Notes: generated by a model not told the origin, from the letters alone. A stretch of DNA of 44,271 nucleotides from a virus (IMGVR_UViG_2565956725_000004), one strand, 5' to 3'. Numbered from the stretch's first letter, positions 1,976-15,267 are shown. A program made the numbers and translations.

Positions 1976-2992
1976 TCACTTTTGTTTTAGCTTTATAATT
2001 TCTGATATCATAGTTGTTAGCTTTGAATCGGAAAGATTCTGCAGTCTATCTTTCTCAATAGAAACTGTAGTTTGTCCCTTTTCTAATATGAAATTTCTTT
2101 CTGTTTTCATTAAAAGCATTGCCAACTCTTTTATCATGTCTTCGTTCTTGAATTCTTGAGCATATTTTAGAGACATGACTTTCATCTCAATATTTGTGAT
2201 TTCATTCTGAAAATATTTGATTTCGTCAAACCCATTTTTATAGAGGCGTAGAAAAAAATAAGCAAACAATTCAACGACTATTACAAATGATAATTTAGGA
2301 AGGTGATGAATAAAAAATCCCACCCCATCCACAATGTCTGGCGCGCTGTAAAGAAAGTAAGCAAGAGATAATATCCCTGTCAACGCAATTATTGTTCCGA
2401 TTGCAAGGTTAAGCCCACCTCGTCGATTGAGTCTGTCTATTTCAGACTCTAATCTTAGAACCATATCAGTATGGAGTTTATGTAAGCTGTAGCTCTTCTT
2501 AAAATCAGATATATCGCTTTTTAGGCTGTTATCTGCCAGAAGTATTGTGTTTCCAATTATTCTCTTTTTTGCATCGGATATTAACTTCTCCCTTTCACTC
2601 TCTGTTATTTCAATGGAAACTCCGGAAGATGTTCTATTTTCAATTTCGCTCAATTTTTTATTTAGCTTAACTATTTCTTTGTGAAAAATATATCTCGTGT
2701 TTTCAATATCTCTACCACCAATTCCTTTGTTTAAATAAGAAGTCATTATTGCGACAAAAGAACCAACAAAAACTAGGGCAGTTGCTGTAAATAAAATAAA
2801 CTCTTTCTTCTCGTTTATTAAATTTACTATTGATGATGATTCCAGTTGAATGTCTGAAAGCGAAGTTTTAAGCACAAAATTCATCACAGGTGAAACCATG
2901 ATTATGGCAACAACTATAATAAATCCATATTTTTTTATAATGTAAATAAGAAGACCAAATAAATCTTTCATTTTATCTTTTACCTGAAACAA
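1976..2992 (-). CDS. Hypothetical multi-pass membrane protein with coiled-coil segments (moron, possible phage exclusion or abortive-infection protein)
   Basis: 338-aa ORF with about four hydrophobic helices separated by Lys/Glu-rich predicted coiled-coil regions; strongly A+T-rich codon usage unlike flanking phage genes; flanked by A+T-rich non-coding DNA. Confidence 0.6.
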   Translation of the reverse strand: MFQVKDKMKDLFGLLIYIIKKYGFIIVVAIIMVSPVMNFVLKTSLSDIQLESSSIVNLINEKKEFILFTATALVFVGSFVAIMTSYLNKGIGGRDIENTRYIFHKEIVKLNKKLSEIENRTSSGVSIEITESEREKLISDAKKRIIGNTILLADNSLKSDISDFKKSYSLHKLHTDMVLRLESEIDRLNRRGGLNLAIGTIIALTGILSLAYFLYSAPDIVDGVGFFIHHLPKLSFVIVVELFAYFFLRLYKNGFDEIKYFQNEITNIEMKVMSLKYAQEFKNEDMIKELAMLLMKTERNFILEKGQTTVSIEKDRLQNLSDSKLTTMISEIIKLKQK

Positions 2993-6428: not shown

Positions 6429-6896
6429 TTTGCTGCTCCTCATCATATCGACCCTGCAAGGTCGGTTGGTTTCTCCACAAAACAGAGAAGAACACCTGCG
6501 GTGGCAGCCGCCCGGATGGATTGGGTTATGAGCCCGTCGTCCGGTGATGCTCTTCTCTGTTTTGTAAAAAGAGCGGTACCAGCCGGAAGCAAGGGTACAA
6601 GCTGGTACCGCCAGGACTACACACAGCATAAAGTTGTGGTGCCGGGTGCCTCCCGGTGCCTGGCGAAGGTTGCACACCAGGCGGGTGGGTATCCACAGAA
6701 GGTCGACTGTCAGCCTCAACCTTAACCCGCGTGCGCTGAGCCGCATTCACCACAACGCTAAGGATTCTCTCTGGTTGAAAATACTTAGCTGTTATGTGCC
6801 TGCTTTTAGCCACATCAGGCGAGGTGGGCCTGGTTATTCCCCAACAACAAGGATTCGGCTAATCTGGATGACTCTGTTCTTAGAGGGGATAATTAA

Positions 6897-7409
6897 ATGG
6901 GAGCGATTTATGTTAAACGTTTGATTCTGTCGGTAGCACTGATAATACCGATAGCATCCAATGCTTCTGATGCTTTGAACCAGCCGAGCAGTAGTCTAAA
7001 TGATGGTGTTGAGACTTTTTTTATTTCCTGCTTTGATATGCCTCAGGAAACAACTACTGATATGGACGCTTGTCAGAGAGTTCAGTTAGCTCAGGTTAGT
7101 TGGGTTAAGAATAAGTATTCGGTGGCCGCCCTGAATCGTTTGAAACAAGACAACAAGGATGATCCACAGCGTCTGCAGGAATTAACTGCTTCTTTTAACG
7201 CGGAAAGTGAAGCTTGGACAGAATTAATTGAGAAAGCGTCAAAGTCCGTCCAGGTTGATTATGCAGGAGGAACTATAGCTGGCACTGCAGTTGCATCACG
7301 TCAAATTGGTCTTCTGGAATTACAATCCCACGATATCTGGGAGCACTGGCTACGATTCGAGGACTCAACTCCTCCTCTTTTGCCAGAACCAAAGTTCAAA
7401 TCTGAGTAA
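6897..7409 (+). CDS. Secreted or periplasmic moron protein (possible DUF1311/LprI-like)
   Basis: 170-aa ORF with N-terminal signal-peptide-like hydrophobic segment; transcribed against the flanking leftward operon; followed by a strong terminator. Confidence 0.55.
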   Translation: MGAIYVKRLILSVALIIPIASNASDALNQPSSSLNDGVETFFISCFDMPQETTTDMDACQRVQLAQVSWVKNKYSVAALNRLKQDNKDDPQRLQELTASFNAESEAWTELIEKASKSVQVDYAGGTIAGTAVASRQIGLLELQSHDIWEHWLRFEDSTPPLLPEPKFKSE

Positions 7410-7435
7410 TAAGTCATCCAGATTGTTAAAGAGCG

Positions 7436-7459
7436 AAGCGTCCTATAGGGCGCTTTTTT
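7436..7459 (+). terminator. Rho-independent terminator after the secreted moron gene
   Basis: 8-bp stem AAGCGTCC/GGGCGCTT (one G-U) with TATA loop, followed by a T-run. Confidence 0.6.
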
Positions 7460-7633
7460 GTTGCTAACGAATCATCCTGGACTTCATATGCCCCAGGCGG
7501 CTACTTCGTGGTCGTCCTGACTGTTCGTTTTTGACATTTACTGACCGCTTACGACACATGCACCATGCACCGTGTTGCAACCAGATTTTGTTGTAATCCT
7601 GTAGTTGGTCTGGAACAAAAGATAAAATTAAAA

Positions 7634-7670
7634 TGCGAGATGTGCAAGCAATATTTTGCGAGATGTGCAA
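7634..7670. promoter_or_regulatory. Candidate left operator (oL): two exact 14-bp direct repeats
   Basis: TGCGAGATGTGCAA at 7634..7647 and 7657..7670; half-sites resemble the TTGCG/CGCAA motifs in the cI-cro intergenic region. Confidence 0.45.
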
Positions 7671-7681
7671 AATGATGGGTG

Positions 7682-7704
7682 ATAAAAAGCCACCTTTCGG
7701 TGGC
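7682..7704 (-). terminator. Rho-independent terminator downstream of cI (minus strand)
   Basis: GCCACC-GAAA-GGTGGC hairpin followed by a U-run on the minus strand, 20 bp past the cI stop. Confidence 0.55.
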
Positions 7705-7724
7705 CGATGGATGGGATATTGAAG

Positions 7725-8417
7725 TTAATTATGTCTCTTAAGGGTTTGCGACTGACTGATTAAGACCTTTCCAAAGACCATGAATCGGTGTTCGTTTTCG
7801 CTAGTAATTCCCCATTCACGGTAAATCTGGTTATCAGAAATCACCAGCAGTTTGTCAGGAATCATTTGAAGTCTTTTAACGTATATTTTGTCATCAAAAC
7901 CAAAGACATATATACCATCACCATCAAACTGATTGATGCTGACATCAACGAAGATGAGATCTCCTGGCTCAATGGTTGGACACATACTGTCCCCACGAAC
8001 GTTGATAACTTTGATGTGATTGGCTGGTCGTCCGCCGAACATTGATACAGCATTATCAGTTCTGTATTCGATGGCATGAATCACATCAATGACATCACCG
8101 CCCTGGATAAGGCCATTTCCCGCACTGGCACTGATATCCAGCATTTCAATACGGAACACATCCTTCACCTGCGCAACATCCTCATCATTACTGTTTTTAT
8201 ATACAGTATTACTTTTGAGGGCAGAGGTAAAGAGATCAGCAATATCAACACCTAAGCTCTTGGCAATATTACTCAGTGTTTGTTCGGTAAATTGTTTCTG
8301 CTTACCCGTTTCTAAGCGCGAGATGTTCGCCGCATCTACTCCTATTGCTTCAGCGAGATCGGCGATTTTCATGTTCTTCGCTTGGCGAAGTTGTCTGACT
8401 CGGTTTCCTATGTTCAT
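7725..8417 (-). CDS. cI: CI-like prophage repressor (XRE HTH N-terminus, LexA-like S24 peptidase C-terminus)
   Basis: 230-aa ORF; N-terminal HTH (QLRQAKNMKIADLAEAIGVDAANISRLETGK); C-terminal S24-type Ser/Lys autocleavage region (GDSM ... KR); divergent from cro. Confidence 0.9.
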   Translation of the reverse strand: MNIGNRVRQLRQAKNMKIADLAEAIGVDAANISRLETGKQKQFTEQTLSNIAKSLGVDIADLFTSALKSNTVYKNSNDEDVAQVKDVFRIEMLDISASAGNGLIQGGDVIDVIHAIEYRTDNAVSMFGGRPANHIKVINVRGDSMCPTIEPGDLIFVDVSINQFDGDGIYVFGFDDKIYVKRLQMIPDKLLVISDNQIYREWGITSENEHRFMVFGKVLISQSQTLKRHN

Positions 8418-8437
8418 GCGTTTATTACATTTCTTTA

Positions 8438-8500
8438 TTGCGTGATAAGCAAATCAACTTGCGCAAAACACTTGCGTGAAATAACATGCATAACGCGCAA
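8438..8500. promoter_or_regulatory. Candidate right operator/promoter region (oR, pR/pRM) between cI and cro
   Basis: Repeated TTGCG/CGCAA half-sites: TTGCGTGATAAGCAA (8438..8452), palindrome TTGCGCAA (8459..8466), TTGCG (8472..8476), CGCGCAA (8494..8500). Confidence 0.5.
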
Positions 8501-8514
8501 TATTTGGAGGGTAT

Positions 8515-8775
8515 ATGCAATCACCATTACGAAATGTGCGTAAGGCGCATGGTTTCACTTTGCAGCATGTTGCTGCGGGTGTTCAAGTCAATCCAGCGAC
8601 GTTGAGTCGTATTGAGAGGCTGGAACAGATTCCATCTATCGAGCTTGCAGAACGTTTAGCCAATTTTTTTAAGGGTGAAATCAGCGAAATGCAGATTCTT
8701 TATCCGGCACGTTTTCAATCTAGCCAAAACCAGAATGGGTTTAAACCACAGGAACAGGAGGTGAACCGTGGGTAA
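8515..8775 (+). CDS. cro: Cro-like XRE-family HTH regulator
   Basis: 86-aa ORF with HTH (FTLQHVAAGVQVNPATLSRIER); first gene rightward of the operator region; GGAGG ribosome-binding site. Confidence 0.75.
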   Translation: MQSPLRNVRKAHGFTLQHVAAGVQVNPATLSRIERLEQIPSIELAERLANFFKGEISEMQILYPARFQSSQNQNGFKPQEQEVNRG

Positions 8776-9319
8776 GCATCACTGGAAAGTAGACAAACAG
8801 CCTGAGTGGTTCGTGAAAGCTGTCAGAAAAACTATCGCAGCGTTGCCTGGGGGTTACGCTGAAGCTGCTGACTGGCTGGATGTAACAGAGAACGCATTAT
8901 TTAACCGCCTTCGTGCCGATGGCGATCAGATTTTCCCGCTGGGATGGGCAATGGTTTTACAGCGTGCTGCTGGCACTCACTACATTGCGGATGCTGTCGC
9001 ACAGTCTGCTGGTGGGGTGTTTGTATCGCTTCCTGAAATTGAGGAAGTAGAGAACGCAGATATAAACCAGCGCCTGCTGGAAGTCATCGAACAGATCGGG
9101 AGTTACTCAAAGCAGATTCGTTCGGCAATCGAAGATGGGGTAGTGGAGCCACACGAGCAGACAGCAATTAATGATGAATTGTATCTGTCAATTTCGAAGC
9201 TCCAGGAGCATGCGGCACTGGTCTACAAAATTTTCTGCGTTCCAGAAAAGAGTGACGCCCGCGAGTGTGCAGCTCCGGGCGTCGTGGCGTTTTGTGTCTG
9301 TGGAGAAACTAACGCATGA
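8768..9319 (+). CDS. Hypothetical protein in the cII position (possible CII-like regulator)
   Basis: 183-aa ORF whose start overlaps the cro stop; assignment is by position only. Confidence 0.45.
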   Translation: MGKHHWKVDKQPEWFVKAVRKTIAALPGGYAEAADWLDVTENALFNRLRADGDQIFPLGWAMVLQRAAGTHYIADAVAQSAGGVFVSLPEIEEVENADINQRLLEVIEQIGSYSKQIRSAIEDGVVEPHEQTAINDELYLSISKLQEHAALVYKIFCVPEKSDARECAAPGVVAFCVCGETNA

Positions 9320-10152
9320 ACAGTTTAACGGCAAATAACCGTTTGTCGCAACAGCTGGTGGTCAGTGTCGCTGCACACCTGTTGTTACGGCATGAATGCA
9401 GATTACCAAATCACCTGGCTGTAAGTAACCACAGAGAACTTTACCTGACTGTGGGGGGCGAGTTGTGCAGGAACTTAACCGCTGGTTTCGTGACGGAAGA
9501 GGACTTTATGTTCATGTTATTCGTTGGGAGCCAGAAACACAGCGCGTTATCTATCTTCGCAAAGACTACCCGCATGAGTGCTTTAGTCCTTTGTGGAAAT
9601 TCAGGCGTGATTTTGTTGAGTGTGAAGGACCACCAGCACATTGATTCTGCCATTCCGGGACGTTACACTGTTCAGGCACCTTATAAAGCGGGTGCCGGGA
9701 TTGGCGTCCTGGAAATGTTATCGGCGATATATGACGCGCCAGCGTCTTTTTTATCGTCTGCGTCTGCGCACACCCAAATTATGGTGGGCTGGACGGGGGC
9801 ACTGAAAGGTGCGCCGGTTTCCGATAACGCCGGTTACGCCAACCCCGTTCAGTTCACCACCAGCGAAATTGGCGTTTCCGGTGGTGAAGGTAATTCACTG
9901 TTATCGGAGGCTGCCATCATGGCTACTGTCCCAGCCCTCACTCGTCTGAATGATGAAGACTTACATAAACTCAGTTATGTAACAACTGCACTACGTGCTC
10001 TGCGCAAGGTAACTCTTTCGGATCCGCAGGCGCATCAGGTTCTGGTAGAAACCCTTCTTAACTTGCAGGCTGAACGTATCCGTTTGGCGGATAAGGCTAA
10101 TTTTCATATTCACCGTCTCCTGAATATCAGCGGAGGGCATCGTCATGCTTAA
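9316..10152 (+). CDS. Hypothetical protein, start uncertain
   Basis: 278-aa ORF with typical enterobacterial codon usage in its distal two-thirds; the proximal part overlaps a plausible small ORF in another frame (9465..9644), so the true start may be downstream. Confidence 0.4.
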   Translation: MNSLTANNRLSQQLVVSVAAHLLLRHECRLPNHLAVSNHRELYLTVGGELCRNLTAGFVTEEDFMFMLFVGSQKHSALSIFAKTTRMSALVLCGNSGVILLSVKDHQHIDSAIPGRYTVQAPYKAGAGIGVLEMLSAIYDAPASFLSSASAHTQIMVGWTGALKGAPVSDNAGYANPVQFTTSEIGVSGGEGNSLLSEAAIMATVPALTRLNDEDLHKLSYVTTALRALRKVTLSDPQAHQVLVETLLNLQAERIRLADKANFHIHRLLNISGGHRHA

Positions 10153-10381
10153 TCCGTTGATCCTCAATATTTGCCGTTTGCTTCAGCGCAAAAAAACATC
10201 AATTCCTACAGTTGGGCAGTGGTACACCACGCCTGCAGGGCATGTTCTACGTGTTAGCCTGGTTGACCGTGAATGTCAGAAGGTGGTTTGTGAACCGCTG
10301 GGCCGTAATTACCGCGTCAGTATGCCGCTTATAGCCTTTCGCTCCGGAAAAAACATGAAGCATCTCGGAGGTGCAGCATGA
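10145..10381 (+). CDS. Hypothetical small protein
   Basis: 78-aa ORF overlapping the upstream stop (ATGCTTAA) and the downstream start (ATGA), consistent with translational coupling. Confidence 0.45.
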   Translation: MLNPLILNICRLLQRKKTSIPTVGQWYTTPAGHVLRVSLVDRECQKVVCEPLGRNYRVSMPLIAFRSGKNMKHLGGAA

Positions 10382-11196
10382 GTATGGAGCTGATGGTTAA
10401 AGCGATGAAAATTCGAGTGGGTAATCCATTGCGAAAACTGGTTCTGATCAAGCTGGCTGATAATGCCAGCGATCAGGGTGAGTGCTGGCCCAGCTACCAG
10501 CATATTGCTGACCAGTGCGAGATTAGCAAACGTTCTGTGATGAATCATATTGCGGCCCTTTGTGAGTCCGGGCTGGTAAAAAAAGTCACCCGGAAAGGTG
10601 AAAAAGGTAACTCAAGTAATATCTATCTCCTTCATCTTGATGGTGCAGGAGATTCACTAGGGGGTAGTGCAAATAATTCACTATCTGGTGCAGCAAATTC
10701 ACCAGGTAGTGCAGGAGTTGCACCAGGGGGTAGTGCAGGAGATTCACCCAGAACCAGTCACTCTTTTGAACCAGTCAAAGAACCAGTCAATGAACCAATA
10801 GCTGTTGGTGCATCTGCTGATGAGTCTGTGCGAGTTCGTTCAAACCGACCGGAATACTCTCCGGAGTTTGAGCAGGCATGGCTGGCCTATCCCAAACGTG
10901 CTGGTGGCAATTCAAAATCTGCAGCCTTCAAAGCCTGGAAAGCCCGTTTGAATGAGGGGGTAAACCCCGAAACCATGCTGGAAGGTGTGAAACGCTACGC
11001 GGGCTGGGTATCTGCGATGGGTAACAGCGGCACACAATTTGTGAAACAGGCTGTCACGTTCTTTGGTCCGGATCGTCATTTCGAAGAATCCTGGGAAGTT
11101 CCTGCAGTATCTGCAGCCAGACGCGAGGACCCGTACTTCAAAGCCAGTTACGACAACGTGGACTACAGCCAGATCCCGGCAGGATTCAGGGGGTGA
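10378..11196 (+). CDS. Replication initiator (lambda O-like / replisome-organiser type) with Gly/Ser-rich linker
   Basis: N-terminal winged-helix-like DNA-binding region, central Gly/Ser linker encoded by repetitive DNA, C-terminal domain; position after cro/cII. Confidence 0.6.
   Translation: MSMELMVKAMKIRVGNPLRKLVLIKLADNASDQGECWPSYQHIADQCEISKRSVMNHIAALCESGLVKKVTRKGEKGNSSNIYLLHLDGAGDSLGGSANNSLSGAANSPGSAGVAPGGSAGDSPRTSHSFEPVKEPVNEPIAVGASADESVRVRSNRPEYSPEFEQAWLAYPKRAGGNSKSAAFKAWKARLNEGVNPETMLEGVKRYAGWVSAMGNSGTQFVKQAVTFFGPDRHFEESWEVPAVSAARREDPYFKASYDNVDYSQIPAGFRG
10642..10790. repeat. Iteron-like direct repeats inside the initiator gene (candidate ori)
   Basis: GTGCAGGAGATTCAC at 10643 and 10733; GGGGGTAGTGCA at 10660 and 10726; GAACCAGTCA at 10751, 10768 and 10780. 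Confidence 0.4.
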
Positions 11197-11687
11197 TTAT
11201 GAGTCTTTTGAATGAAGTTCAGAAATTCATTGAAGCCCATCCGGGGTGTACTTCCGGAGACATTGCGGATGCTTTTGCTGGTTACTCACGGCAGCGCGTT
11301 CTGCAGTCAGCAAGCAAGTTACGTCAGAGTGGGCGTGTGGCTCACCGTTGTGAAGGAGATACACGCAGACATTTCCCGCGCCTGACTGAGAGAGCGCAGG
11401 AGCCGGAACCACAATCTGTTCGTGAAACCAGACCTGTGCGCAATTTCTATGTCGGCACTAACGACCCCCGGGTGATTTTGTGCCTGACCCGCCAGGCTGA
11501 AGAACTGGAGTCCAGGGGCTTATTCCGTCGAGCTGCAACGGTGTGGATGGCGGCATTCCGTGAAAGCCACTCCCAGCCAGAACGAAACAATTTTCTGGCG
11601 CATCGTGAGCGGTGCTTACGGAAAAGCAGCAAGCGCGCTGCATCGGGTGAAGAGTGGTATCTGTCAGGGAATTACGTGGGGGCTTAA
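11193..11687 (+). CDS. PerC-domain transcriptional regulator homolog
   Basis: C-terminal segment LESRGLFRRAATVWMAAF resembles the PerC/Pch family core as I remember it. Confidence 0.5.
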   Translation: MIMSLLNEVQKFIEAHPGCTSGDIADAFAGYSRQRVLQSASKLRQSGRVAHRCEGDTRRHFPRLTERAQEPEPQSVRETRPVRNFYVGTNDPRVILCLTRQAEELESRGLFRRAATVWMAAFRESHSQPERNNFLAHRERCLRKSSKRAASGEEWYLSGNYVGA

Positions 11688-12340
11688 TGAGTAATAAATA
11701 TTGCCAGGCGCTGGTGGAGCTGCGGAACAAACCAGCCCATGAACTGAAGGAAGTGGGCGATCAGTGGCGCACGCCGGACAACATTTTCTGGGGAATTAAC
11801 ACCCTGTTTGGCCCGTTTGTTCTGGATCTGTTCACTGATGGTGATAACGCCAAATGTGCCGCTTATTACACTGCGGAAGACAACGCGCTGGCGCATGACT
11901 GGTCTGAACGTCTTGCGGAGCTTAAAGGTGCTGCCTTTGGTAATCCCCCGTACAGCCGCGCCAGTCAGCATGAGGGGCAATACATCACCGGCATGCGTTA
12001 CATCATGAAACATGCCAGTGCCATGCGTGATAAAGGTGGGCGCTATGTTTTCCTGATCAAAGCTGCCACCAGCGAAGTTTGGTGGCCGGAAGATGCAGAC
12101 CATATTGCTTTTATTCGCGGGCGTATTGGTTTTGAACTGCCAGCCTGGTTTATCCCGAAGGACGAGAAGCAGGTGCCGACAGGCGCTTTCTTCGCTGGTG
12201 CTATTGCTGTTTTCGACAAGACCTGGAAGGGACCGGCAATCAGCTACATCGGGCGCGATGAACTTGAGGCATGTGGTGAGGCCTTTCTGGCGCAGGTTCG
12301 CCAGCAGGCGGAAAAACTGGTCAGGGAGATGGCGGCATGA
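11687..12340 (+). CDS. Phage N6-adenine DNA methyltransferase (Dam-like)
   Basis: NPPY catalytic motif (AFGNPPYSR); start at ATG 11687 (MSNKYCQ) overlapping the upstream stop in TAATG. Confidence 0.8.
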   Translation: MSNKYCQALVELRNKPAHELKEVGDQWRTPDNIFWGINTLFGPFVLDLFTDGDNAKCAAYYTAEDNALAHDWSERLAELKGAAFGNPPYSRASQHEGQYITGMRYIMKHASAMRDKGGRYVFLIKAATSEVWWPEDADHIAFIRGRIGFELPAWFIPKDEKQVPTGAFFAGAIAVFDKTWKGPAISYIGRDELEACGEAFLAQVRQQAEKLVREMAA

Positions 12341-12663
12341 CGACATTAACTCAATGCCAGCAGCAGGTGCTGGATATGCTGATTTCTTACCAGAAAGAAC
12401 GTGGCTTCCCGCCAACCAATCAGGAGGTGGCAACCATGCTGGGATACCGTTCAGTGAATGCAGCGGTGGAGCATCTTCGCGCACTGGAGAAAAAAGGCGT
12501 CATCACGATAAAGCGTGGCGTGGCCCGGGGGATAACGCTTCATACCACGGTGAAGGACGACGACAGCGAGGCGGTCGGGATTATCCGCTCACTGCTTGCC
12601 GGTGAGGAAAACGCAAGGCTGCGTGCAACCCACTGGTTACATGAGAGGGGCCTGAAAGCATGA
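12337..12663 (+). CDS. Small DNA-binding protein with LexA-like N-terminal winged-helix domain
   Basis: 108-aa ORF; LTQCQQQVLDMLISYQKERGFPPTNQEVATMLGY resembles the LexA DNA-binding domain; no peptidase domain. Confidence 0.55.
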   Translation: MTTLTQCQQQVLDMLISYQKERGFPPTNQEVATMLGYRSVNAAVEHLRALEKKGVITIKRGVARGITLHTTVKDDDSEAVGIIRSLLAGEENARLRATHWLHERGLKA

Positions 12664-13049
12664 AGCTGATCCTGCCTTTTCCGCCCAGCGTGAACACGTA
12701 CTGGCGACACCCCAACAAAGGGGCGTTTGCAGGTAAGAGCCTGATAAGCGCGGCGGGGCGCAAATTCCAGAGCGCGGCGTGTGCAGCAATAGTTGAGCAG
12801 TTACGTCGTCTGCCAAAACCAACGTCGGCACCTGCTTCAGTGGAGATCGTGTTGTTTCCTCCGGATAACCGGATCCGCGATCTGGACAACTATAACAAGG
12901 CGCTGTTTGACGCCCTGACCCACGCGGGTGTGTGGGAAGACGACAGTCAGGTGAAAAGAATGCTGGTGGAGTGGGGACCGGTTATCCCGGAAGGGAAGGT
13001 CGAGATCACTATCAGTAAGTACGAGAAAACGGCGGGTGCAGCCGCCTGA
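12660..13049 (+). CDS. rusA: RusA-family Holliday junction resolvase
   Basis: 129-aa ORF with RusA-like acidic catalytic region (DLDNYNKALFDAL); typical nin-region gene. Confidence 0.85.
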   Translation: MKLILPFPPSVNTYWRHPNKGAFAGKSLISAAGRKFQSAACAAIVEQLRRLPKPTSAPASVEIVLFPPDNRIRDLDNYNKALFDALTHAGVWEDDSQVKRMLVEWGPVIPEGKVEITISKYEKTAGAAA

Positions 13050-13068
13050 TTAAGAGGAGAAACGAAGT

Positions 13069-13911
13069 ATGAATAATCTGATGGTCATTGATGGTATTGA
13101 AGTTCGTCGTGATGCTTATGGACGTTACAGCCTGAACGATCTGCATCGCGCAGCAGTAGCATCTGGTGCAAATGCCAGAACCAAGGAGCCGGGAAAGTTT
13201 CTTTCCAGCCAACAGATTACTGAGCTGGTTCAGGAATTGATCGATACCCAAAATCTGGGTGTCGGTTCATTCAATGAAACTACCCAAAATTTGGGTAGTA
13301 AACCTGTCAGTAAAATAGAAGGGCGGAATGGCGGAACATATGTCTGTAAGGAACTGGTGTATGCCTATGCAATGTGGATCAGCCCGTCATTCCATCTGAA
13401 GGTGATCCGCACTTTCGACATGGTAACCAGCGCACCGGAAAAATTATCCGGGCAGGCTGCTGACAAGATGCAGGCTGGCGTGATTCTGCTGGACTTTATG
13501 CGCCGGGAGTTAAATCTGTCTAACTCATCAGTGCTTGGTGCCTGTCAGAAACTTCAGGAGGCTGTTGGCTTACCGAATCTGGCACCGCGCTATGCCATTG
13601 ATGCTCCTGCTGATGCACACGATGGCTCAAGTCGCCCGACACTGTCACTGAGTGCACTGCTGAAACAGTATGGTATACGCCTGACGGCTAATCAGGCATA
13701 TCACCAGATGGCGAAGCTGGGGATCGTTGAACAACGTGAACGATACAGCCGCACTGCGATTAACAACATCAAAAAATTCTGGTCGCTGACGGCGAAAGGC
13801 TGCATGTTCGGCAAAAACATCACCAGTCCCGCAAATCCGCGCGAGACGCAGCCGCATTTCTTCGAATCCCGATTCCCTGAGCTGTTAAAGCTGCTCGATA
13901 CCGTTCATTGA
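13069..13911 (+). CDS. KilA-N domain protein
   Basis: N-terminal region (IDGIEVRRDAYGRYSLNDLHRAA) resembles the KilA-N domain; 280 aa. Confidence 0.65.
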   Translation: MNNLMVIDGIEVRRDAYGRYSLNDLHRAAVASGANARTKEPGKFLSSQQITELVQELIDTQNLGVGSFNETTQNLGSKPVSKIEGRNGGTYVCKELVYAYAMWISPSFHLKVIRTFDMVTSAPEKLSGQAADKMQAGVILLDFMRRELNLSNSSVLGACQKLQEAVGLPNLAPRYAIDAPADAHDGSSRPTLSLSALLKQYGIRLTANQAYHQMAKLGIVEQRERYSRTAINNIKKFWSLTAKGCMFGKNITSPANPRETQPHFFESRFPELLKLLDTVH

Positions 13912-13912
13912 G

Positions 13913-14908
13913 GTGACCGTGAGAGCACTACTGACCCCTGAAATTGCCCCGCGTATGGGGATCGTATTGTTCAGGCCCGGTTCAGAGCTGATGCCCCTGT
14001 TTATGCAGGGGCGTGTCCTGCTGGAGCCTGAGCCGGAACGTTATTCATCTTTCGCCAGTGGTGCCGTTCCGGCGGCATCACAACCGCTGGCGGATGATCC
14101 TGCCGTTCGGGCCGTGTTCCGCAATGAGGCAGTGATCCGTCGTGCTGGTGGCGTGGAATGTCTTGAAAGCTGGTTACTTCGTGAAAAAGGCTGCCAGTGG
14201 CCTCATTCCGACTGGCACAGCGAGAACATGACAACAATGCGACACGCTCCGGGCGCAATCCGTCTGTGCTGGCACTGCGATAACCAGCTGCGCGATCAGT
14301 TCACGGAACGGCTGGAATCAATGGCAACGGATAACTGTACCCGCTGGGTGTTGTCTGTTGTGCGTCGGGATCTCGGTTTTGATGACAGTCACGTTGTGAC
14401 AATGCCGGAACTGTGCTGGTGGCTGATTCGTAATGACCTGGCGGATGCCTTACCGGAAAGTGCAGCCCGTAAGGCACTGAGATTACCGAAGCCTGTTGTG
14501 CCGTCTGTCACCCGGGAAAGTGACCTTGTGCCTTCGGTTCCCGCCACCAGCATCATCCAGAATAAAGCGAAAAAGGTGCTGGCGCTGAAAGTGGATCCGG
14601 AGTCGCCGGAGTCTTTTATGTTACGCCCAAAACGTCGCCGCTGGGTTAATGAAAAGTACACGCGCTGGGTTAAGACACAGCCGTGTGCATGTTGTGGAAA
14701 ACCTGCTGATGATCCCCACCACCTGATAGGTCACGGTCAGGGTGGAATGGCTACAAAAGCGCATGACCTCTTTGTGTTGCCTTTGTGCAGAAAGCATCAC
14801 GACGAGCTGCATGCGGATACCGTGGCATTTGAAGAGAAGTATGGCTCCCAGCTGGAGCTGATATTTCGTTTTATCGATCGTGCACTGGCAATTGGCGTGC
14901 TGGCCTGA
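13913..14908 (+). CDS. DUF968-family nin-region protein (YdfU-like) with Cys/His-rich C-terminus
   Basis: 331-aa ORF with CWHCDNQ and CACCGKP...HH...H motifs; immediately upstream of Q. Confidence 0.65.
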   Translation: MTVRALLTPEIAPRMGIVLFRPGSELMPLFMQGRVLLEPEPERYSSFASGAVPAASQPLADDPAVRAVFRNEAVIRRAGGVECLESWLLREKGCQWPHSDWHSENMTTMRHAPGAIRLCWHCDNQLRDQFTERLESMATDNCTRWVLSVVRRDLGFDDSHVVTMPELCWWLIRNDLADALPESAARKALRLPKPVVPSVTRESDLVPSVPATSIIQNKAKKVLALKVDPESPESFMLRPKRRRWVNEKYTRWVKTQPCACCGKPADDPHHLIGHGQGGMATKAHDLFVLPLCRKHHDELHADTVAFEEKYGSQLELIFRFIDRALAIGVLA

Positions 14909-14910
14909 TT

Positions 14911-15267
14911 TTGTGGAGAAAGTTGATGCGTGATATGTATGAAGTATTGGACCGCTGGGGTGCATGGGCTGCAGCAGATAACAGTGGTGTGGACTGGCAG
15001 CCTGTTGCTGCAGGGTTTAAAGGTTTACTACCTCATGGAAAGAAAACACGCCAACAATGCGATGATGATGAAGGAATCATGATTGACAGCTGTGTTGCGC
15101 GATTGCGGAAATATAAGCCCGAAGAGTATGAGTTGGTTATTGCTCATTTTGTTATCGGCATCTCACTAAGAACTATTGCAAAGAAGCAGAAGTGTTCTGA
15201 TGGGACAATAAGAAAAGAGTTGCAAACAGCTCTTGGTTTTCTGGATGGTGTGCTTTCAATGTTGTAA
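14911..15267 (+). CDS. Late-gene antiterminator Q (QuuD/phage-82 type)
   Basis: 118-aa ORF; the WGAWAA...GFKGLL...Q/CDDD region matches the remembered small Q antiterminators of E. coli prophages. Confidence 0.8.
   Translation: MWRKLMRDMYEVLDRWGAWAAADNSGVDWQPVAAGFKGLLPHGKKTRQQCDDDEGIMIDSCVARLRKYKPEEYELVIAHFVIGISLRTIAKKQKCSDGTIRKELQTALGFLDGVLSML

Follow-up and report, generated by a model that had tools for sequence, protein, structure and literature searches.

The replication initiator gene (positions 10378-11196, + strand) of a lambdoid prophage, found in a stretch of viral DNA of 44,271 nucleotides (IMGVR_UViG_2565956725_000004; hereafter, the window), carries in its middle an array of short tandem repeats and, directly beyond it, a block of family-invariant sequence. 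Together, the array and the block probably constitute an origin of replication of the lambda type, embedded in that part of the gene which encodes the linker of its own initiator. An initial annotation of the window had read the repeats as iterons within the initiator gene and, as such, as a candidate origin. This reading is now supported on several counts: the repeats are present and non-random, their motif is conserved as DNA across hosts regardless of reading frame, it co-varies with the recognition helix of the encoded protein, and it stands in fixed geometry to the invariant block, the synonymous sites of which are frozen.

Three exact repeats had been listed in the initial annotation between positions 10640 and 10800, and all three were recovered at these places within the open reading frame (ORF) 10378-11196: GTGCAGGAGATTCAC at 10643-10657 and 10733-10747, GGGGGTAGTGCA at 10660-10671 and 10726-10737, and GAACCAGTCA at 10751-10760, 10768-10777, and 10780-10789, its three copies falling within 39 bp. 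They are pieces of one regular five-unit array plus a block of 10-mer repeats. The iteron array (10643-10747) is made up of five dyad-symmetric cores of 15 bp, the starts of which are spaced 24, 21, 21, and 24 bp apart. Cores 1 (10643-10657) and 5 (10733-10747) are both GTGCAGGAGATTCAC, core 3 (10688-10702) is GTGCAGCAAATTCAC, and core 4 (10709-10723) is GTGCAGGAGTTGCAC; core 2 (10667-10681; GTGCAAATAATTCAC) has four mismatches to the motif and was identified by its register. The cores take the form GTGCA-N5-T(T/G)CAC, with four to five of the five arm positions complementary. The five units encode residues 89-123, with the DNA-binding domain on one side and the C-terminal domain on the other. 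As the initial annotation had it, the repeats overall encode a Gly/Ser-rich linker (residues 88-141; GAGDSLGGSANNSLSGAANSPGSAGVAPGGSAGDSPRTSHSFEPVKEPVNEP), also rich in Ala and largely unstructured according to AlphaFold2. With up to three mismatches allowed, the motif has eight matches in the 44-kb window, against 1.2 expected, and four of these lie within the array. Isolated iteron-like sites were also observed outside of it, namely GTGAAGGAGATACAC at 11350-11364 (two mismatches), within a PerC-like gene, and three sites with three mismatches each at 9465-9479, 9884-9898, and 13480-13494 (- strand); set against the approximately 1.2 matches expected window-wide, these four may represent either chance occurrences or auxiliary binding sites.

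The DNA of the gene is repetitive beyond what the protein repeat would call for. Repeated 10-mers cover 137 nucleotides of the initiator ORF, a value above that of every one of 2000 protein-preserving resamplings of synonymous codons (mean, 10 nucleotides; maximum, 80); with 2000 dinucleotide shuffles, the mean was 6 nucleotides and the maximum 64. Codon use in the linker is extreme, with all seven Ala residues encoded by GCA and both Leu residues by CTA, a codon with a usage of 0.01 among the genes of the prophage.

Comparisons across homologs indicate that the repeats are conserved as DNA rather than as protein. A homolog search with the initiator found 5428 sequences, and three sets of homologs were used: 10 diverged phage homologs, 80 genomic loci (40-63% G+C) retrieved by peptide patterns of the N-domain only, and 120 viral contigs retrieved by the pattern of the block. 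The hosts of the second set include Pseudomonas, Xenorhabdus, Photorhabdus, Shewanella, Marinomonas, Aeromonas, and Enterobacter, amongst others. With every one of the 181 distinct loci, tandem units spaced 21-24 bp apart follow directly after the winged-helix domain, their number being five in 77 loci and four in 64. The spacing ahead of the last core is almost without exception 24 bp, and 17 bp separate the start of that core from the conserved block. The cores are conserved and the intervening spacers variable, and the 15-bp motif is retained in prophages of E. coli, Salmonella, Aeromonas, Pseudomonas, Enterobacter, and Shewanella. In 65 of the 181 loci, at least one unit lies in a different reading frame (spacings of 23 + 22 as opposed to 21 + 24) with the DNA motif unchanged, and the frame-shifted units are translated as VQEIHQ, compared to AGDS(L/P) in the usual frame. 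Given this retention of the DNA motif in units of shifted frame, no single protein constraint or overlapping ORF can explain the repeats. The initial annotation had posed conservation at the DNA level across homologs as the matter to be checked, and the motif is indeed kept while both the peptide and the reading frame change; its alternative, that the repeats only reflect a repetitive linker, is contradicted by these out-of-frame units. At one locus (L050, Pseudomonas bharatica CSV86, with the gene start at 1501), the last spacing is 23 rather than 24 bp, the block is out of frame, and the ORF ends in …VVQELHPEPVTLLNQ and a stop codon. This locus is likely a pseudogene or a sequencing error, and it reveals the peptide that the block would yield in the alternative frame.

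The unit consensus of the 181 loci is partitioned by the recognition-helix class of the winged-helix domain. In the window, the predicted recognition helix is KRSVMNHIAALCE (residues 51-63; codons at 10528-10566, + strand), which is helical in the AlphaFold2 model. Helices of the form (K/R)RS(V/A)..H are found with units GTG(C/A)A-N5-T(T/G)CAC, RSTVK.HIR with GGGC(A/G)G-N3-CTGCCC, KSAVR.HI with TGCC(A/G)-N5-..GCA, RSTVR(K/R)HIK with TAGGCCCAGAAAGCA, and RTTAINHIK with GTGTAAAAATTACAC. The motif of the window is unchanged in those prophages of Aeromonas, Pseudomonas, Enterobacter, and Shewanella that share its helix, and a single Pseudomonas strain was found to carry two prophages of different classes (L016 and L058), so that the class of unit follows the protein and not the host. 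All of the unit types are dyad-symmetric 15-mers, as would fit a dimeric winged-helix binder.

The second element, the family-invariant block CCAGAACCAGTCACTCTTTTGAACCAGTCAAAGAACC, occupies positions 10748-10784 and holds the first two copies of GAACCAGTCA, 17 bp apart. From 10750, 17 bp beyond the position at which the last core starts, to 10797, the sequence reads AGAACCAGTCAC-TCTTTT-GAACCAGTCAAA-GAACCAGTCAAT-GAACCA, where the extra copy GAACCAGTCAAT, of 12-bp period, and the partial copy GAACCA (10780-10797) extend the block in the window phage; Tandem Repeats Finder reports 2.5 copies of period 12 at 10768-10797. The top strand of the block is rich in A and C (36 of 53 nucleotides). Figures on the conservation of the block that are free of selection bias were obtained from 86 distinct homologs chosen by N-domain peptide patterns only. 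These give the consensus CCAGAACCAGTCACTCTTyTGAACCAGTCAAnGAACC with a major-base frequency of about 0.9-1.0 per position. The codons AGA, ACC, AGT, CAC, TCT, TTT, and GAA of the block are the sole codons used for their residues (fraction 1.00), and the fractions for CCA and GTC are 0.93 and 0.95, respectively, against a mean top-codon fraction of 0.53 for the conserved residues of the N-domain. Pseudomonas loci of about 60% G+C show the same frozen codons, although codons of this kind are disfavoured there. Variation is found in the codon that separates the copies and in the pyrimidine spacer (TCTTTT, TCTTCT, or TCTCTT, encoding F, S, or L).

The block was detected in all of 91 loci at no more than six mismatches of 28, and, truncated contigs aside, it was never seen without the N-domain of the window family. 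Among 174 distinct loci, which include loci selected by the block pattern itself, GAACCAGTCA is present in two copies in 116 and in three in 49, with spacings of 17 and 12 bp; a 278-amino acid variant from E. coli has one additional 12-bp copy, GAACCAGTCAAA (EPVK). Beyond the block, the C-terminal domains and the neighbouring replication genes differ among homologs. Two natural hybrids (P0064 and P0072; compare L005-L009) have a foreign N-domain with its own iterons joined to a C-domain of the window type exactly at the block, which is thus also a module junction. A perfect 10-nucleotide inverted match between 10437-10446, in the N-domain KLVLIKL codons, and 10749-10758, at the start of the block (ACTGGTTCTG/CAGAACCAGT), was considered as a long-range pairing and rejected, since the upstream arm is not conserved as DNA in homologs; it is probably due to chance. 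Conceivably, though the case is somewhat short of even, the 37-bp block is an unrecognised, nucleotide-invariant origin core, serving as an unwinding or helicase-entry element or as a second initiator site, possibly single-stranded, bound by the invariant part of the N-domain. Such a core would be common to thousands of prophages of Gammaproteobacteria regardless of iteron specificity, C-terminal domain, and host G+C, and the peptide PRTSHSFEPVxEP would be a by-product of selection on the DNA.

Duplex stability was assessed by a nearest-neighbour profile in windows of 40 bp. An adjacent A+T-rich element, such as the initial annotation had suggested looking for, was only partly found and is modest in the window. 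To the left of the array, the flank at 10598-10642 has 33% G+C and encodes the conserved wing GEKGNSSNIYLLHL; within 9378-12196, the least stable 40-bp windows start at 10598-10603, about 3.3 standard deviations above the mean (z = 3.3). On the right, the block has 38-42% G+C in the window and is mildly unstable (z = 1.7). Of 90 homologous loci, 40 have their least stable 40-bp window, within 500 bp to either side, at the block; the median z is 2.3.

In the initiator, a protein of 272 amino acids, a disordered linker joins a winged-helix domain at the N-terminus to a helical domain at the C-terminus. In the AlphaFold2 model, residues 1-90 form the winged-helix domain, with values of the predicted local distance difference test (pLDDT) of 65-88 in 10-residue blocks and a β-hairpin at 67-85 as the wing; residues 94-157 of the linker are unstructured (pLDDT < 50), and residues 160-230 make up the helical C-domain. 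The initial annotation had called the protein an O-like initiator, which holds for its role and for the names of its PHROG matches: it matches PHROG 270, "replication initiation protein" (E = 1e-88), and its C-domain matches PHROG 1701, "DnaD-like helicase loader." The likeness does not extend to the Pfam family, which is HTH_36 (E = 1.8e-11), with no match to Phage_rep_O at E ≤ 0.01 and none to Rep_3. Other Pfam matches were to B-block_TFIIIC and HTH_20, and the DnaD_N profile scored 24.3 bits, under its cut-off of 27 bits. NCBIfam profiles gave weak HTH matches only, neither Pfam nor NCBIfam has a model that matched the C-domain, and a sequence search of solved structures returned no relative. 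Foldseek with the model of the initiator found generic winged-helix folds only, including the N-domain of DnaD (2v79; E about 0.03) and a staphylococcal Rep-DNA complex (5kbj).

No helicase, primase, or loader gene was found in the early-right operon (8515-15267), and the initiator would therefore have to use the DnaB/DnaC machinery of the host directly. Its C-terminal tail, SQIPAGFRG (11167-11193, + strand), is identical in eight of nine residues to residues 171-179 of the E. coli primosomal protein DnaT, SQIPPGFRG (BLASTP), each sequence being the extreme C-terminus of its protein. A relationship between the initiator and DnaT beyond this tail was rejected (hhalign probability, 0.2%). As a lead and not a result, the tail could be a short motif at which helicase-loading proteins of the host dock. 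Other members of the family end differently (…DYGQSSCDW and …GESGENLNF), and relatives with other C-terminal domains have a partner gene, for a primase-helicase (F451/Min27), a helicase (ZF40), or a "replication protein" (Klebsiella phage ST13-OXA48phi12.5).

An iteron origin inside an initiator gene is a classic arrangement, and no publication describing it for this initiator family was found in the full-text literature searched. Ori-lambda consists of iterons and an A+T-rich tract in the middle of gene O, where two iterons and the tract are enough for unwinding, and lambda O also binds the A+T-rich tract in its single-stranded form (PMC7466680). Lambda O and the gp18 proteins of phages P22 and L each have their own type-specific repeats inside the coding region (PMC8022706). 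Tandem dyad-symmetric repeats at intervals of about two helical turns occupy the middle of the initiator gene in ori-lambda and in the six-iteron origins of the Stx phages 933W and P27, as they do in the window, and the number of iterons varies between them, lambda having four and the Stx phages six (PMC7466680, PMC8022706). In ori-lambda, a less stable tract on one side is where unwinding starts, and the site lies, as in the window, between the regions for an N-terminal DNA-binding and a C-terminal helicase-recruitment domain. Unlike in lambda, the initiator of the window belongs to HTH_36 and not to Phage_rep_O, its 15-bp cores are of different sequence, the flanking tract is an invariant 10-mer repeat block that is not strongly A+T-rich, and the window prophage lacks a P-like loader gene downstream. 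Around 1980, lambda, phi80, and 82 were compared and reportedly found to have type-specific iterons beside a conserved right-hand part, which would match the pattern seen here.

Gene 18 of the lambdoid phages P22 and L encodes distantly related ori-binding proteins with type-specific internal repeats, and there too the origin was proposed from sequence (PMC8022706). The repeats of P22 (about 20 bp) and of L (11 bp, TGTCCAACGGA, six copies) both differ from the units of the window, and both phages have a DnaB-type helicase gene, gene 12, next door, which the window prophage lacks. With the iteron origins of plasmids (RK2 oriV with TrfA, F with RepE, and pPS10 with RepA), a winged-helix initiator binds direct-repeat iterons beside an unwinding element of short repeats (13-mers), one strand of which Rep contacts as well (see also the review PMC4980987). 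By analogy, the copies of GAACCAGTCA, spaced 12 and 17 bp apart, could play the part of the 13-mers. Iteron plasmids differ in having their iterons outside the rep gene, DnaA boxes as a rule, and Rep_3 initiators, none of which applies to the window. Lastly, DopC of the Cellvibrionales and Oceanospirillales is a domesticated lambda-O-like protein with HTH_36 and a C-terminal DnaT motif, the loci of which are reported to be without iteron-like repeats and not to be origins; the N-terminus of lambda O is reported to be related to HTH_36 at the level of HHpred (PMC5509034). The initiator of the window shares with DopC the HTH_36 N-domain and the DnaT-like end, the latter likeness being limited to the last nine residues, whereas repeats are present and conserved at the window locus, unlike at the dopC loci. 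More original than the arrangement itself are the frame-independence of the iterons, as direct evidence of selection at the DNA level, and the 37-bp block common to prophages of the Gammaproteobacteria.

A course of initiation may be proposed. Dimers of the initiator would bind the five iterons at 10643-10747 through their winged-helix domains and, with the iterons about two helical turns apart, would be brought onto one face of the DNA to form a wrapped nucleoprotein complex. The resulting stress could be relieved by melting of the GAACCAGTCA block (10748-10797) and possibly also of the A+T-rich left flank, such that the block would serve for duplex opening, for helicase entry, or as a second contact for the conserved part of the initiator. 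The C-terminal domain and the tail would then recruit the DnaB helicase of the host, as neither a helicase nor a loader is encoded in the early operon, and transcription from the early-right promoter would pass through the site as it does in lambda.

A number of points weigh against the assignment of an origin. Binding by the initiator, melting at the block, recruitment of helicase, and origin activity are all steps that we infer. The least stable stretch lies on the left of the array and the block on its right is only mildly unstable in the window, making the place of melting uncertain. Neither a DnaA-box consensus in or beside the array nor an IHF consensus within it was found, the only near-consensus DnaA sites (one mismatch) being at 10597 and 11040. 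The number of units is polymorphic among near-identical genes of E. coli and Shigella, with proteins of 242, 250, 272, 294, and 302 amino acids corresponding to 1, 2, 5, 8, and 9 units, respectively (phage cdtI has eight units). A range of one to nine among such close relatives implies that copy number is loosely constrained or that some of the copies represent defective prophages. A search of the literature, in which the genome papers of SfV and ST64B were not covered, yielded the general precedent of lambda, P22, and L and the DopC paper, and found no iterons or origin described for SfV, ST64B, cdtI, mEp460, Stx2c phages, or CPS-53; none of the relevant papers found contained the iteron or block strings, and the 40 best phage records carry no rep_origin or repeat feature under the match. 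Finally, the iterons could serve autoregulation or copy control besides, or instead of, initiation.

In its strict form, this last alternative holds that the units bind the initiator or another phage protein for autoregulation, copy control, handcuffing, or as a roadblock to early-right transcription, and that the origin lies elsewhere. Plasmid iterons do mediate autorepression and handcuffing in addition to initiation, the flanks of the array in the window are not strongly A+T-rich, and iteron-like sites are also found in isolation (11350, 9465, 9884, and 13480). An origin elsewhere is nonetheless unlikely: the array is the only cluster of tandem repeats in the early region (6500-14500), no sigma-70-like promoter site was found in 10300-11300, the array stands at a fixed distance from an invariant and relatively unstable block, which an operator would not need, and its geometry matches that of ori-lambda (PMC7466680, PMC8022706).

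That the block, possibly along with the array, is maintained chiefly as a joint for homologous recombination, allowing the N-terminal (origin-specific) and C-terminal (helicase-recruiting) modules to be swapped, draws on the two hybrids joined exactly at the block, and on the differences in C-terminal domains and partner genes past it (those of F451/Min27 and ZF40, as opposed to none in the window). This explanation is improbable, however, as occasional recombination cannot hold some 35 nucleotides invariant across genera where the flanking codons have diverged to about 50-60% amino acid identity; such invariance amid diverged flanks needs purifying selection on the DNA. Moreover, it is compatible with the origin, the conserved core of which would also serve as a point of crossover.

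There is very little to be said for the repeats being a low-complexity Gly/Ser/Ala/Pro linker that arose through recent in-frame duplications, with DNA of no function of its own. The region does encode a disordered linker, two of the five units are identical across 15 nucleotides, and one to nine units in near-identical E. coli genes would be expected of slippage-prone repeats. Against this stand the same DNA motif in different frames of intact ORFs at 65 of the 181 loci, its retention across hosts of 40-63% G+C despite changes in the encoded peptide, a degree of repetition above all 2000 synonymous resamplings, the contrast between conserved cores and variable spacers, and a unit sequence that tracks the recognition helix. 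An RNA or translational signal (structure, pause, or frameshift site) or a small gene that overlaps the initiator gene or is antisense to it, for which the alternative-frame ORFs at 10667-10801 (+) and 10586-10747 (-) and the fixed rare codons AGA and CTA might be cited, can be set aside as barely credible, since the sole Rfam match (mir-875, 22 bits against a gathering score of 84) is not significant, no single overlapping ORF would survive the frame shifts between units, the one long-range complement found for the block (10437-10446) is not conserved as DNA in homologs, and the dyad symmetry and helix co-variation point to recognition of double-stranded DNA.

The initiator family is large. 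In DNA, the gene of the window shares 98-99% identity with the replication genes found in SfV, cdtI, mEp460, Ayreon, and many Stx2a, Stx2c, and Stx2k phages and 89% with sb42 of ST64B, and 2718 of 5426 complete E. coli genomes contain all or part of it. The family includes phages that convert their hosts to production of Stx2a, Stx2c, Stx2k, and Cdt, as well as serotype-converting phages of Shigella and Salmonella, and placement of the origin would provide a defined target for work on induction and on the amplification of toxin genes. It would also give a rule by which the recognition helix and iteron class predict replication specificity (incompatibility or immunity to replication interference), together with a compact module, comprised of the N-domain, iterons, and invariant block, for phage-derived replicons. 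As a clean textbook case, the frame-independent iterons show selection at the DNA level dictating the sequence of a protein linker, and the invariant block is a specific, testable candidate for the site of duplex opening or helicase entry.

The window as a whole is a lambdoid prophage. The integrase gene is at 386-1600 and that of a cI-like repressor at 7725-8417 (- strand). The early-right operon runs from a cro-like gene through cII-like (8768-9319) and Ash-like (9316-10152) genes and a small ORF to the initiator gene. Downstream of it are genes for PerC-like (11193-11687), Dam (11654-12340), LexA-N-like, RusA, KilA-N, DUF968/HNH, and Q proteins, followed by a lambda-like tail region. Three other repeats were observed in the window. 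Two copies of a palindromic 16-mer, TACCCAAAAT(C/T)TGGGT, are located 36 bp apart at 13245-13260 and 13281-13296 in the KilA-N-domain gene (13069-13911). An exact direct repeat of 14 nucleotides, TGCGAGATGTGCAA, occurs at 7634-7647 and 7657-7670, at a distance of 23 bp, immediately downstream of the gene for the cI-like repressor. A 21-bp tandem repeat of 2.2 copies, TTTCATTCTCAAAATATGTGA, is found at 2180-2224 inside the ORF 1976-2992 (- strand), close to that end of the prophage where the integrase lies.

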